64,000 nt of DNA, from NCBI RefSeq assembly GCF_036507355.1, contig NZ_AP027877.1; one strand, given 5' to 3'. Below are positions 4,132-40,599 of this stretch, piece after piece. The notes beneath the pieces were generated by a model, which was not told the origin of the DNA, made no database searches, and worked only from the letters and a program-made list of their open reading frames with translations. Position 1 is the first letter of the stretch, and each line of letters opens with the position of its first letter. Source of the stretch: Escherichia coli. Its GTDB lineage: Bacteria > Pseudomonadota > Gammaproteobacteria > Enterobacterales > Enterobacteriaceae. The position numbers and the translations under genes are program-made.

Positions 4132-6981
4132 TTGAAATACCTTGCTTCTTTTCGTACAACCCTGAAAGCCTCGCGCTACATGTTCAGAGCATTGGCGTTA
4201 GTGCTCTGGCTGTTGATTGCTTTTTCATCCGTTTTTTACATCGTTAATGCGTTACATCAGCGAGAATCGGAAATTCGTCAGGAATTTAATCTGAGTTCCG
4301 ATCAGGCTCAGCGCTTTATTCAACGCACCTCTGATGTGATGAAAGAGCTGAAGTACATCGCCGAAAATCGCTTATCGGCAGAAAACGGTGTGCTTTCCCC
4401 GCGTGGACGAGAAACGCAGGCGGATGTGCCTGCGTTTGAACCGCTGTTTGCCGACTCTGATTGTTCCGCAATGAGTAACACCTGGCGAGGTTCTCTGGAG
4501 TCATTGGCGTGGTTTATGCGCTACTGGCGCGATAATTTTTCTGCGGCTTACGATCTCAACCGGGTATTTTTAATCGGCAGCGATAACCTCTGCATGGCCA
4601 ATTTCGGTCTGCGTGATATGCCAGTGGAACGCGATACCGCGTTGAAAGCGTTGCATGAACGCATCAATAAATATCGAAATGCACCACAAGATGATAGCGG
4701 CAGTAACCTCTACTGGATCAGCGAAGGTCCGCGCCCTGGCGTCGGGTATTTTTACGCGTTGACGCCAGTTTATCTGGCGAACCGGTTGCAGGCGCTTTTG
4801 GGTGTCGAGCAGACCATCCGGATGGAGAATTTTTTCTTACCTGGTACGTTGCCGATGGGGGTTACCATTCTTGATGAAAATGGTCATACCCTGATTTCGC
4901 TTACCGGACCAGAAAGTAAAATTAAGGGCGATCCTCGCTGGATGCAGGAACGCTCCTGGTTTGGCTATACGGAAGGGTTCCGGGAGCTGGTGCTGAAGAA
5001 AAATCTGCCACCCTCATCGCTAAGCATCGTGTATTCGGTGCCGGTTGATAAGGTGCTGGAACGCATTCGCATGTTGATCCTTAACGCAATTTTGCTGAAT
5101 GTGCTTGCCGGAGCTGCATTGTTTACTCTCGCGCGGATGTACGAGCGACGTATTTTCATTCCGGCGGAAAGCGACGCCCTGCGACTGGAAGAACATGAGC
5201 AGTTCAATCGCAAGATTGTCGCCTCCGCGCCAGTGGGTATCTGCATTTTGCGTACCGCTGATGGCGTCAATATTTTAAGTAACGAACTGGCGCATACCTA
5301 TCTCAATATGCTTACGCATGAGGACCGCCAACGACTGACACAAATTATCTGTGGGCAGCAGGTCAATTTTGTTGATGTCCTGACCAGCAACAATACCAAT
5401 CTGCAAATCAGCTTCGTCCATTCGCGCTATCGTAATGAAAACGTGGCCATTTGTGTGCTGGTGGATGTTTCTTCGCGCGTGAAGATGGAAGAGTCGTTGC
5501 AGGAGATGGCACAAGCAGCGGAACAGGCGAGCCAGTCAAAATCGATGTTCCTTGCCACCGTCAGTCATGAGCTGCGAACGCCGCTGTATGGCATTATCGG
5601 TAACCTGGATCTTTTGCAAACCAAAGAGTTACCGAAAGGCGTCGATCGTCTGGTGACGGCAATGAACAACTCTTCCAGCCTGTTGTTGAAAATTATCAGC
5701 GATATTCTCGATTTCTCGAAGATTGAATCGGAACAGTTGAAGATCGAACCGCGTGAGTTTTCACCGCGTGAAGTGATGAACCACATCACCGCCAACTATT
5801 TACCGCTGGTGGTACGCAAGCAGTTAGGCTTGTACTGCTTTATTGAACCGGATGTGCCAGTGGCCTTAAATGGCGACCCGATGCGTTTACAGCAGGTCAT
5901 CTCCAACCTGTTGAGTAACGCCATAAAATTCACCGATACCGGCTGTATAGTTTTGCATGTCCGCGCTGATGGCGATTATCTCTCTATCCGTGTTCGCGAT
6001 ACCGGCGTGGGGATTCCGGCGAAAGAAGTGGTGCGCTTGTTTGATCCCTTCTTCCAGGTCGGAACGGGCGTACAGCGAAACTTCCAGGGGACCGGTCTGG
6101 GTCTGGCGATTTGTGAAAAACTGATCAGCATGATGGACGGCGATATCTCGGTAGATTCAGAACCGGGAATGGGCAGCCAGTTTACCGTGCGTATTCCGTT
6201 GTACGGCGCTCAGTACCCGCAGAAAAAAGGCGTGGAAGGGTTGAGTGGTAAACGCTGCTGGCTGGCGGTCCGCAATGCGTCGCTCTGTCAGTTCCTGGAA
6301 AACAGTTTGCAGCGCAGCGGCATCGTCGTAACAACATACGAAGGGCAGGAACCGACTCCCGAAGATGTGTTAATCACTGACGAGGTAGTGAGTAAAAAAT
6401 GGCAGGGCAGAGCGGTAGTGACCTTCTGTCGTCGACATATTGGTATTCCGCTGGAGAAAGCGCCAGGGGAGTGGGTACACAGTGTGGCTGCCCCGCATGA
6501 GCTACCGGCATTGTTGGCGCGTATTTATTTGATCGAGATGGAGAGCGACGATCCTGCTAACGCTCTGCCGTCGACGGACAAAGCGGTCAGCGATAATGAC
6601 GATATGATGATTCTGGTCGTGGATGATCATCCGATTAACCGACGTCTGCTGGCAGATCAGTTGGGATCGTTGGGCTATCAATGTAAAACCGCGAATGATG
6701 GCGTCGATGCGCTTAATGTACTTAGCAAGAATCATATTGATATCGTGCTTAGCGACGTCAACATGCCAAATATGGATGGTTACCGCTTGACGCAACGCAT
6801 TCGTCAGTTGGGACTGACGTTGCCGGTAATCGGAGTAACTGCTAATGCGTTGGCTGAAGAGAAGCAGCGGTGTCTGGAGTCCGGTATGGACAGCTGCCTC
6901 TCGAAGCCGGTAACGCTGGATGTGATAAAACAGACGCTGACGGTATATGCCGAGAGGGTCAGGAAATCGCGGGAATCGTAG
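4132..6981 (+). CDS. rcsC: hybrid sensor histidine kinase RcsC (949 aa)
   Basis: ORF track; HisKA H-box (SHELRTPL), HATPase and C-terminal receiver domain; convergent with rcsB. Confidence 0.93.
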   Translation: MKYLASFRTTLKASRYMFRALALVLWLLIAFSSVFYIVNALHQRESEIRQEFNLSSDQAQRFIQRTSDVMKELKYIAENRLSAENGVLSPRGRETQADVPAFEPLFADSDCSAMSNTWRGSLESLAWFMRYWRDNFSAAYDLNRVFLIGSDNLCMANFGLRDMPVERDTALKALHERINKYRNAPQDDSGSNLYWISEGPRPGVGYFYALTPVYLANRLQALLGVEQTIRMENFFLPGTLPMGVTILDENGHTLISLTGPESKIKGDPRWMQERSWFGYTEGFRELVLKKNLPPSSLSIVYSVPVDKVLERIRMLILNAILLNVLAGAALFTLARMYERRIFIPAESDALRLEEHEQFNRKIVASAPVGICILRTADGVNILSNELAHTYLNMLTHEDRQRLTQIICGQQVNFVDVLTSNNTNLQISFVHSRYRNENVAICVLVDVSSRVKMEESLQEMAQAAEQASQSKSMFLATVSHELRTPLYGIIGNLDLLQTKELPKGVDRLVTAMNNSSSLLLKIISDILDFSKIESEQLKIEPREFSPREVMNHITANYLPLVVRKQLGLYCFIEPDVPVALNGDPMRLQQVISNLLSNAIKFTDTGCIVLHVRADGDYLSIRVRDTGVGIPAKEVVRLFDPFFQVGTGVQRNFQGTGLGLAICEKLISMMDGDISVDSEPGMGSQFTVRIPLYGAQYPQKKGVEGLSGKRCWLAVRNASLCQFLENSLQRSGIVVTTYEGQEPTPEDVLITDEVVSKKWQGRAVVTFCRRHIGIPLEKAPGEWVHSVAAPHELPALLARIYLIEMESDDPANALPSTDKAVSDNDDMMILVVDDHPINRRLLADQLGSLGYQCKTANDGVDALNVLSKNHIDIVLSDVNMPNMDGYRLTQRIRQLGLTLPVIGVTANALAEEKQRCLESGMDSCLSKPVTLDVIKQTLTVYAERVRKSRES

Positions 6982-7174
6982 GACGGATAAGGTGTTTATG
7001 CCGCATCTGGCATTCAGTGCAAATGCCAGATGCGACGCTGACGCGTCTTATCTGGCCTACTTTAATGTAATCTGTTGAAATAATGGGAATCGTAGGACGG
7101 ATAAGGCGTTTACGCCGCATCCGGCAATCGGTGCAAATGCCAGATAAGACACAAACGCGTCTTATCTGGCCTAC
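6971..7174. repeat. REP/BIME cluster: two ~90-bp units in tandem (6971-7060 and 7085-7174), each carrying REP palindromes (GCCGGATGCGGCGTAAACGCCTTATCCGGCCTAC-like)
   Basis: Direct reading; units about 88 percent identical; first unit overlaps the last codons and TAG stop of rcsC. Confidence 0.8.
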
Positions 7175-7180
7175 AGATGA

Positions 7181-7831
7181 TTAGTCTTTATCTGCCGGAC
7201 TTAAGGTCACAGAAGAGAGATAATTCAGCAGGGCGATATCGTTCTCGACACCCAGCTTCATCATCGCAGATTTCTTCTGGCTACTGATGGTTTTAATACT
7301 GCGGTTCAGCTTTTTAGCGATCTCGGTCACCAGGAAGCCTTCCGCAAACAGGCGCAGAACTTCACTCTCTTTTGGCGAGAGACGCTTGTCACCGTAACCA
7401 CCAGCACTGATTTTTTCCAACAGGCGAGAAACGCTTTCTGGGGTAAATTTCTTCCCTTTCTGCAGCGCGGCGAGAGCTTTCGGCAGATCGGTCGGTGCAC
7501 CTTGTTTCAGCACGATCCCTTCGATATCCAGATCCAATACCGCACTAAGAATCGCCGGGTTGTTGTTCATGGTCAGAACAATAATCGACAGGCTTGGGAA
7601 ATGGCGCTTGATGTACTTAATTAAGGTAATGCCATCGCCGTACTTATCGCCAGGCATGGAGAGATCGGTAATCAACACATGCGCATCCAGTTTCGGCAGG
7701 TTGTTGATCAGTGCTGTAGAGTCTTCAAATTCGCCGACAACATTCACCCACTCAATTTGCTCAAGTGATTTGCGAATACCGAACAAGACTATCGGATGGT
7801 CATCGGCAATAATTACGTTCATATTGTTCAT
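7181..7831 (-). CDS. rcsB: response regulator RcsB (216 aa)
   Basis: ATG at 7829-7831 gives MNNMNVIIADDHP...; receiver plus LuxR-type HTH; the track's 231-aa ORF is an upstream extension. Confidence 0.93.
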   Translation of the reverse strand: MNNMNVIIADDHPIVLFGIRKSLEQIEWVNVVGEFEDSTALINNLPKLDAHVLITDLSMPGDKYGDGITLIKYIKRHFPSLSIIVLTMNNNPAILSAVLDLDIEGIVLKQGAPTDLPKALAALQKGKKFTPESVSRLLEKISAGGYGDKRLSPKESEVLRLFAEGFLVTEIAKKLNRSIKTISSQKKSAMMKLGVENDIALLNYLSSVTLSPADKD

Positions 7832-10831: not shown

Positions 10832-10924
10832 AAAAAAAACCGGATGCGAGGCATCCGGTTGAAATAGGGGTAAACAGACATTCAGAAATGAATGACGGTA
10901 ATAAATAAAGTTAATGATGATAGC
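10832..10924 (-). ncRNA. micF: MicF antisense sRNA
   Basis: Minus strand reads GCTATCATCATTAACTTTATTTATTACCGTCATTCATTTCTGAATGTCTGTTTACCCCTATTTCAACCGGATGCCTCGCATCCGGTTTTTTTT with terminal hairpin and U-run; divergent from ompC. Confidence 0.85.
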
Positions 10925-11243
10925 GGGAGTTATTCTAGTTGCGAGTGAAGGTTTTGTTTTGACATTCAGTGCTGTCAAATACTTAAGAATAAGTTATTGA
11001 TTTTAACCTTGAATTATTATTGCTTGATGTTAGGTGCTTATTTCGCCATTCCGCAATAATCTTAAAAAGTTCCCTTGCATTTACATTTTGAAACATCTAT
11101 AGCGATAAATGAAACATCTTAAAAGTTTTAGTATCATATTCGTGTTGGATTATTCTGCATTTTTGGGGAGAATGGACTTGCCGACTGATTAATGAGGGTT
11201 AATCAGTATGCAGTGGCATAAAAAAGCAAATAAAGGCATATAA

Positions 11244-17239: not shown

Positions 17240-18898
<1,659 letters not shown>

Positions 18899-18899
18899 T

Positions 18900-19035
18900 G
18901 ATGTGCCACATCCGGCATGGTATGCCGGATGTGGCGTATGCTGATAAGACGCGCCAGCGTCGCATCAGGCAACCGGCTCGGGCGTTAGATGCGGCGTAAC
19001 CGCCTTATCCAACCTATGGGGTGCCGCACTTCACG
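18900..19035. repeat. REP element cluster between mqo and eco
   Basis: Imperfect palindromes of the GCCGGATG...CATCCGGC / CGCCTTATCC type read directly. Confidence 0.7.
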
Positions 19036-19040
19036 GCAGT

Positions 19041-19529
19041 TTAGCGAACTACCGCGTTGTCAATTTTCTCTTCCGCCTTCCAGACGCGGTACTTCACATC
19101 TACATTGTCTGGCGTATACACCACGATCGGCAGCTTGCTGTTGTAACGCAGCATTCCAGCATCGCCCAGATACGCGGTGACAAATTTCTTCTCTTTCTTG
19201 CCATCCGGGCAGGCCATCATCGTGGAAACCGGCGAGCTAACTTTATCAAAGACATAATAATCATAGCCCCAGCCTTCCAGCGTTTTGTTTTCCAGCTTCC
19301 CGCCGAGACGATGCAAATTGCAATCGACTTCCAGCGTCTGACCGATTAACAGTTCTACTTTCAGGGTAGATTCATCTTCTTGCGGGGTTAACTGAATCAC
19401 CTGACGCTTCATGCCTTTTTCAGCTTGTGGATAAGGCGCGATTTTTTCCAGTGGCTGGACGCTCTCTGCCGCCCAGGCGGAAGTGGTGGCGAAAGCGGCA
19501 AACAATACTGCAGGTAGAATGGTCTTCAT
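19041..19529 (-). CDS. eco: ecotin, periplasmic serine protease inhibitor (162 aa)
   Basis: ORF track; signal peptide and characteristic ecotin sequence. Confidence 0.93.
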
Positions 19530-36720: not shown

Positions 36721-36797
36721 TGGTCGGCACGAGAGGATTTGAACCTCCGACCCCCGACACCCCATGACGGTGCGCTACCAGGCTGCGCTACGTGCCG
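36721..36797 (-). tRNA. proL: tRNA-Pro (anticodon GGG)
   Basis: Minus strand reads CGGCACGTAGCGCAGCCTGGTAGCGCACCGTCATGGGGTGTCGGGGGTCGGAGGTTCAAATCCTCTCGTGCCGACCA (77 nt, cloverleaf, TPsiC-loop GGTTCAAATCC, 3' CCA). Confidence 0.9.

Positions 36798-40206: not shown

Positions 40207-40599
<393 letters not shown>

Follow-up and report, generated by a model that had tools for sequence, protein, structure and literature searches.

A locally duplicated BIME-2 element between rcsC and rcsB of Escherichia coli, bearing a copied rcsC 3' end and varying from one to four units among strains

In a 64,000-nucleotide stretch of an Escherichia coli genome (assembly GCF_036507355.1, contig NZ_AP027877.1; hereafter the window, whose positions are used throughout), the convergent genes rcsC and rcsB are separated by a cluster of repetitive extragenic palindromic (REP) sequences. 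This cluster is a bacterial interspersed mosaic element (BIME) of the BIME-2 type, catalogued in E. coli K-12 as REP162. Judging from sequence comparison, its two units are a local duplication, with a similarity that goes beyond membership of one REP family; the duplicated segment probably included the last codons of rcsC, the number of units has since changed in both directions, and the strongest hairpins would act at the 3' ends of both convergent transcripts. We hold this explanation as a whole (BIME-2/REP162 identity, local duplication, copy-number changes and a role at RNA 3' ends) with a confidence of about 0.8, a single joint figure. The literature already covers the class of REP162 and its tandem structure, how such arrays vary among strains, and the ending of transcripts at its hairpins; what this analysis adds is the captured gene end and the direction of its copying, the age of the duplication, the frequencies of the alleles, the recurrence of crossovers between units, and a parallel case at a second locus, L119.

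A repeat finder returned a single direct-repeat family, 6963-7060 and 7077-7174, whose copies are 98 nt long, 87% identical and separated by a start-to-start period of 114 bp, and the copies were also aligned with MAFFT. The initial annotation had described two tandem 90-nt units of about 88% identity (6971-7060 and 7085-7174), both opening with the same 22-mer, GGGAATCGTAGGACGGATAAGG; these coordinates, the percentage and the identical start are correct, the homology extends 8 nt farther left than those limits, into rcsC, and the alignment disposes of the doubt, raised at the time, that the units might prove unrelated on closer inspection. The word tandem needs more care, as the repeats are direct and regularly spaced but do not abut: between them lies a non-homologous spacer of 16 nt (TTTAATGTAATCTGTT, 7061-7076), found at this locus only. 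Tandem Repeats Finder, run on 6500-7600, did not report the pair.

Each unit, read on the plus strand, consists of a leader of 15 nt, a Y-type REP whose 5' end carries GTAG, a linker of 11 nt, and an inverted Z2-type REP whose 3' end carries CTAC. In unit 1 the leader (6963-6977) is formed by the last rcsC codons themselves, G AAA TCG CGG GAA TC (K S R E S), and is followed by the Y REP (6978-7012), the short head-to-head linker TTCAGTGCAAA (7013-7023), and the Z2 REP (7024-7060, inverted repeat I3). Unit 2 opens with the leader GAAATAATGGGAATC (7077-7091), a non-coding copy of the rcsC 3' end that is identical to 6963-6977 at 12 of 15 positions, and continues with the Y REP (7092-7126), the short linker ATCGGTGCAAA (7127-7137), and the Z2 REP (7138-7174, inverted repeat I4). 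A search pattern for Z2-type REPs fits 7025-7060 with 2 mismatches, where 0 such matches are expected by chance. All four REPs carry GTAG or CTAC at the foot, as do REPs of the E. coli type, which are imperfect palindromes of 30-40 nt.

The genes on either side were identified from the list of open reading frames (ORFs), their translations, and the RefSeq annotation of matching E. coli loci. The rcsC coding sequence occupies 4132-6981 on the plus strand (949 codons as listed) and rcsB occupies 7181-7831 on the minus strand (216 codons plus the stop at 7183-7181), leaving an intergenic gap of 199 bp that has the same length in K-12 MG1655. RcsB ends in LLNYLSSVTLSPADKD; RcsC of the window strain ends in VYAERVRKSRES, that is, in RVRKSRES*, and its K-12 counterpart in RDS*. 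The rcsC stop codon, TAG at 6979-6981, lies within the conserved GTAG of the first REP, so the first unit does overlap the end of the gene as had been proposed; annotators should be warned that GGGAATCGTAG at 7085-7095, in unit 2, is not a second gene end. When 6850-7300 was compared by megablast with 5,426 complete E. coli genomes, the locus was found in essentially all of them, annotated with rcsC and rcsB; the K-12 RefSeq annotation of this region holds the two genes only, without a repeat feature.

BIME-2 elements are composed of z2 and y REPs with a short S linker, in multiple tandem copies whose number varies among strains, whereas BIME-1 elements are composed of z1 and y REPs with a long L linker that binds integration host factor (IHF), in single copy; GTAG is a conserved feature of REPs (PMC3333891). 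The cluster, initially called BIME-type, can be placed specifically in BIME-2: Y and Z2 REPs alternate in both units, each linker is 11 nt long (and unlike in sequence to the 13-nt linker of the naRNA4 consensus), and the tandem copies, two in the window, number from one to four across the 5,426 genomes, in agreement with the earlier supposition that unit number may vary between strains. It further resembles the BIME-2 elements of Gilson, Bachellier and Hofnung in its tandem pairs and its intergenic 3' location, and differs from them in that its tail-to-tail linker is locus-specific and holds a copy of the neighbouring gene's 3' end, and in that its Z2 stems have a CAG/CTG variant instead of CTG/CAG. 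Tail-to-tail flanking motifs of BIME-2 elements are classed as s, l or r. BIME-1 (RIB/RIP) elements also present an inverted REP pair at the 3' ends of transcription units, but the 11-nt linkers, the Z2-type REPs and the lack of any match to the IHF consensus WATCAANNNNTTR in 6950-7200 (its six matches in the window are all elsewhere) rule out a BIME-1/IHF reading. Of the roles first suggested for the cluster, IHF binding accordingly falls away, for want of a long linker and a consensus site; the suggested role at mRNA 3' ends fares better, as published convergent transcript ends fall on both Z2 hairpins.

With REP162 of K-12, under the name used in bioRxiv 10.64898/2026.03.23.713779, the cluster shares an identical locus and aligns base for base except for a few substitutions, among them three C-to-T changes in the first Y REP of the window strain and Glu for Asp at the penultimate residue of RcsC. 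A full-text literature search for rcsC together with REP or BIME returned nothing specific.

The Rfam family RF02564 (naRNA4), a model of the repeating Y+Z2 unit of REP325, aligns end to end with both units on the plus strand at scores above its gathering score of 59.5 (66.7 bits at 6981-7057 and 71.6 bits at 7095-7171), and falls under the threshold on the minus strand (43.3 and 52.7 bits). REP325 is likewise an array of tandem Y-linker-Z2 units, but it has six of them, with a different linker sequence, inside the yjdM-yjdN operon of tandem genes, as opposed to two units between convergent genes. Such scores could be taken to mean that each unit is transcribed as a naRNA4-like nucleoid-associated RNA that would condense DNA together with HU, all the more as any RNA with two hairpins works according to a 2015 paper (PMC4550694). 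Yet what the Rfam model effectively detects is the Y+Z2 repeat as such, and a preprint with overlapping authors found no measurable chromosome compaction by REP325 and recast it as a regulator in the 3' untranslated region (bioRxiv 10.64898/2026.03.23.713779); we regard a nucleoid role for the rcsC-rcsB units as very improbable.

That the two units descend from one another is best seen against a third Y+Z2 unit of the window, at 18939-19014 on the minus strand, which has only the REP cores in common with units 1 and 2: it is without the leader, the 11-nt linker and the stem variant GCCAGAT...ATCTGGC, and has the usual GCCTGAT...ATCAGGC. Over the 15 nt before GTAG, the two units match at 12 of 15 positions, and 31 other GTAGG sites in the window reach at most 9 of 15. 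A 40-nt query spanning the junction between the units (7055-7094) matches the rcsC-rcsB locus alone across the 5,426 genomes, so the 31-nt tail-to-tail segment is not a dispersed BIME motif. The great number of REPs in a genome (6850-7300, a query of 451 nt, has a median of 27 matching places per E. coli genome) might suggest two independent insertions, alike only as all REPs are alike; but the non-REP leader, the linker and the stem variant are common to both units and absent from 18939-19014, and we rejected this candidate on the comparison with the third unit and on the GTAGG-site leader test, leaving it a negligible probability. The third unit itself scores 68.9 bits with the naRNA4 model and lies between convergent ORFs at 17252-18898 (plus strand) and 19041-19529 (minus strand).

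The direction of copying was read from the C-termini of RcsC in a protein search and in Enterobacterales loci (112 usable out of 120 recovered by a degenerate DNA pattern), which are conserved through RVRK-x-R and then usually have E or G and 0-1 further residue. Many genera that lack this REP have kept the K-x-R-E end: Erwinia, too, has KSRES; in Pseudocitrobacter and Trabulsiella the ends are KTRES and KARES, with unrelated hairpins after them; and rcsC of the Kluyvera-like locus L119 ends AAA GCG CGG GAA TAA beside an unrelated REP. Because this end is kept where the REP is missing, copying ran from rcsC into the spacer, a direction that bears out the initial annotation's view of unit 2 as bearing a copy of the rcsC 3' end (12 of the 15 nt before GTAG). 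GAAAT-CG-CGGGAA is thus ancestral coding sequence and the unit 2 leader a derived copy; the REP's own contribution to the end of rcsC is the TAG and possibly also the preceding Ser codon. The reverse, in which the GGGAATC leader belonged to a mobile BIME whose insertion replaced the rcsC terminus, finds some encouragement in the fact that the TAG certainly lies within the REP's GTAG, and in RcsC being one residue shorter (KTRT* or KTRG*) in the nearest genera, Salmonella and Citrobacter. It is nevertheless improbable, given that L119 has CGG GAA (R E) before its stop despite an unrelated REP, that K-x-R-E(S/G) ends are widespread, and that leader plus spacer occur at no other locus in the 5,426 E. 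coli genomes.

Under local duplication, an ancestral inverted pair of Y REP, short linker and Z2 REP would have abutted rcsC so closely that its GTAG supplied the TAG stop codon, and some 114 bp, extending into rcsC by at least 7 nt and probably by 15, would then have been duplicated in place. The possibility that the spacer is a diverged rcsB-proximal tail, with the unit corresponding to the whole ancestral intergenic region, was rejected: the 16 nt at 7061-7076 show no similarity to the tail that follows unit 2, since 3046 of 5000 shuffles score equally well, nor do they show any to rcsC.

Two diverged Escherichia loci that are labelled E. coli, L022 (rcsC 91% identical) and L087 (86%), both have the spacer and a pseudo-rcsC leader (GAAGTAATGGGATTCGTAGG in L022 and GAAATATTGGGATTTGTAGG in L087). 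Their units have decayed in different ways: in L022 the Y and Z2 REPs of unit 2 are collapsed into one palindrome, and in L087 the Y REP of unit 1 is internally deleted and the Z2 REP of unit 2 truncated. Since spacer and pseudo-leader are present in both, the duplication is older than these splits and predates the separation of E. coli from other Escherichia lineages. The leaders also bear on a polymorphism at the end of RcsC, which reads RES in the window strain and many others versus RDS in K-12 and several strains (GAA versus GAT; position 6975, codon 948): the same A/T difference is found in the leader copies of L022 and L087, at the counterpart of window position 7089, a hint that the true end of the gene and its copy may have exchanged sequence.

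At the same junction, Salmonella, Citrobacter, Kluyvera and Enterobacter have other, genus-specific types of REP-like palindromes, so that the space between rcsC and rcsB seems to be a recurrent landing place for REPs; many other genera have a plain hairpin there, followed by a run of T. The closest parallel comes from Enterobacteriaceae bacterium MGYG-HGUT-00110 (L119:1784-2035), where a tandem array at the rcsC-rcsB junction, with a period of 79 nt, 3.2 copies and 88% matches, is built of units that each open with a copy of the last rcsC codons (gene AAAGCGCGGGAATAAGGG, copies GAAGCGCGGGAGTCAG). The likeness to the E. coli cluster lies in the junction and in tandem units that start with a copied gene end; the REP type is different, there is one REP per unit, and the period is 79 nt. 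Because REP type, REPs per unit, period and copies all differ, the L119 array arose independently, and capture of a gene end by REP amplification happened twice, in Escherichia and in the Kluyvera-like L119. When the 112 outgroup loci were scanned for intergenic copies of the rcsC end, only L022 and L119 were convincing; the remaining matches (12-13 of 18 positions) probably reflect a fortuitous likeness to REPs.

Within E. coli, about 18% of genomes have a single unit: the inter-unit junction is absent in about 980 of 5,418 genomes with the locus, and in an even sample of 59 genomes, 9 have a span of 341 bp as against 455 bp. Two units are found in about 81% (the junction is present in 4,436 of 5,426 genomes, from which the multi-unit genomes are to be subtracted), and three or four in about 0.6%, as a synthetic junction-unit-junction query was fully matched in 32 genomes; junction matches exceed genomes by 35, with at most 3 per genome. 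Among retrieved alleles the intergenic length is 85 bp for one unit, 199 bp for two, 313 bp for three (strain 14EC033) and 427 bp for four (strain MS 115-1), and a 181-bp allele has an 18-bp deletion in the Z2 REP of unit 2, GGTGCAAATGCCAGATAAGACACTAACGCG to GGTGCTAACGCG (L006, from E. coli F9792, and three related records). CP074856, K-12, CP024147 and CP146665 supply natural alleles of this series.

Nine sequenced one-unit alleles reveal at least three crossover intervals: in the 3' arm of Z2 (L129, L133 and L134), in GTGCAAATGCCAGAT (L002, L130, L131 and L135), and within or before the Y REP (L003 and L132). Strains with an identical RcsC protein accession fall into different crossover classes, and the middle units of the four-unit allele are hybrids. 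From the hybrid units we infer recurrent unequal exchange or slippage; the array would have grown and shrunk, after the first duplication, through unequal homologous recombination or replication slippage between near-identical units. As an alternative route to copy-number change, a model based on the REP-associated transposase may apply by analogy, for BIMEs undergo cleavage and recombination by TnpA-REP in vitro, and their amplification has been modelled (PMC3333891).

The same observations could be read without any function for the host, the cluster being a selfish or neutral repeat kept by the REP-associated transposase and by recombination, at which transcript ends are incidental. This is the most serious of the rivals, and although we consider it on the whole unlikely, several findings suit it: the drift of copy number between one and four with recurrent independent deletions, the decayed units of the diverged Escherichia lineages, a Y hairpin in unit 1 of the window strain that behaves like shuffled sequence, and the cleavage, recombination and amplification of BIMEs just mentioned. 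It accounts poorly for the retention of at least one Y+Z2 pair in all 59 evenly sampled E. coli genomes, for the occupation of this junction by other kinds of REP in Salmonella, Citrobacter, Kluyvera and further genera, and for a compensatory change in the Z2 stem (CTG/CAG to CAG/CTG) that preserves pairing. A rearrangement beside the cluster was seen in E. coli LB19b (L128:3330-3420), in which an IS1 is found 22 nt into the 3' end of rcsB; the genome lacks rcsB, rcsD and a 5' portion of ompC but has the two-unit REP cluster intact, and about 50 genomes are alike. The loss resembles a deletion known in E. coli B strains.

A role at RNA 3' ends would fall to the Z2 hairpins. Their folding energies are -21.4 and -21.9 kcal/mol on the two strands in unit 1, and -20.4 (plus) and -24.5 (minus) kcal/mol in unit 2, with z from -5.8 to -8.5 over both units and strands. 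The Y hairpin of unit 2 is weaker (-14.4 and -14.8 kcal/mol on the plus and minus strands, z about -2), and that of unit 1 in the window strain (-8.3 and -6.7 kcal/mol, z -0.4 and -0.8) resembles shuffles, so that three of the four REPs fold clearly better than shuffled sequence. The weakness of the unit 1 Y hairpin results from the three C-to-T differences from K-12 (6990, 6996 and 7007), of which the one at 7007 gives the Y 3' arm an alternative partner in the Z2 5' arm, with 13 bp of perfect pairing (7002-7014 with 7022-7034).

Table 16 of bioRxiv 10.64898/2026.03.23.713779, drawn from an earlier study, lists REP162 with two convergent transcript-end overlaps ("bidirectional terminators"), one at K-12 2316832-2316874 in log and stationary phase and one at 2316942-2316985 in stationary phase. 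Converted to the window (window position = 2324008 - K-12 coordinate), these are 7134-7176 and 7023-7066, that is, the two Z2 hairpins. According to that preprint, both members of a convergent gene pair tend to be more highly expressed where a REP lies between them, and REP325 is a partial terminator and stabiliser. Going by these published data on the REP162 locus and the REP family, each of the two convergent transcripts would fold into the strong Z2 hairpins, and these would set or shield its 3' end, acting as a two-way barrier to 3' exonucleases and read-through and not as a classical U-tract terminator. As a change in copy number is tolerated, the extra units probably add little.

Several points weigh against this explanation. 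A consensus scan of 6700-7500 on both strands found no promoter and no intrinsic terminator, and for that reason we avoid the term classical terminator for the hairpins; only 3 U are present in each hairpin's 3' flank (Table 16) and the effects of REPs vary widely with context (bioRxiv 10.64898/2026.03.23.713779). The mapped ends may be products of processing (exonuclease arrest, or Rho-dependent termination with trimming) instead of intrinsic termination. As to the duplication, a simple head-to-tail event should have left a spacer that resembles the sequence after unit 2, and the spacer does not resemble it.

Two further roles deserve comparison with the preferred role at RNA 3' ends. One is at the level of DNA, the cluster being a gyrase binding and cleavage site or a topological barrier between converging transcription units: gyrase binding is a property of BIME-2 elements in general, a subset of them is enriched in gyrase cleavage sites, with a preference for Y REPs (PMC6379681), and positive supercoils would be expected to build up under convergent transcription. 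Only that subset of BIME-2 elements is cleaved, though, and the locus is not among the sites highlighted in that study, whose supplements, as far as searched, have no entry for rcsB or rcsC; a gyrase-related role seems to us unlikely, a little more so than the absence of any host function.

The other concerns translation. Liang, Rudd and Deutscher are said to have described, in 2015, ribosome stalling by a REP near a stop codon. A rule that the REP lie within 15 nt of the stop is summarised in PMC12306157, and both gene ends comply with it, as the Y REP starts inside the rcsC stop (0 nt) and, on the rcsB strand, the Z2 stem of unit 2, at -24.5 kcal/mol, begins 10 nt past the rcsB stop codon. 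The REPs might on this analogy lower the synthesis of RcsC and RcsB by stalling terminating ribosomes; but the hairpin beside the rcsC stop is weak in the window strain (-8.3 kcal/mol, z -0.4), and we think such an effect unlikely.

Elsewhere in the window, gathering-level Rfam matches, all on the minus strand, were found for MicF RNA (10832-10925, 116.8 bits), a tRNA (36724-36797) and an L25 ribosomal-protein leader (40513-40538); they are ordinary E. coli content and fit the ompC-micF-rcsDB region.

The cluster has little importance beyond annotation in so far as it is a textbook BIME-2 that already has its name in a catalogue, and it is known in general that arrays of this kind differ in copy number between strains. 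The details of the locus neatly illustrate how REP arrays evolve, with a stop codon inside GTAG, a captured gene end, measurable allele frequencies, recurrent deletions, and a parallel in L119. A wider proposition, to which we give a slim chance, is that REP amplification may routinely drag along the adjacent gene end, that the resulting pseudo-ends could exchange with the real one, and that one to four units could tune RcsB and RcsC. If this were true, unit number would be a strain-level dial on RcsB and RcsC, and would thereby shift the set point of the Rcs phosphorelay, which governs envelope stress and capsule; the natural alleles could serve as a series for the effect of REP dosage on the expression of these regulators.

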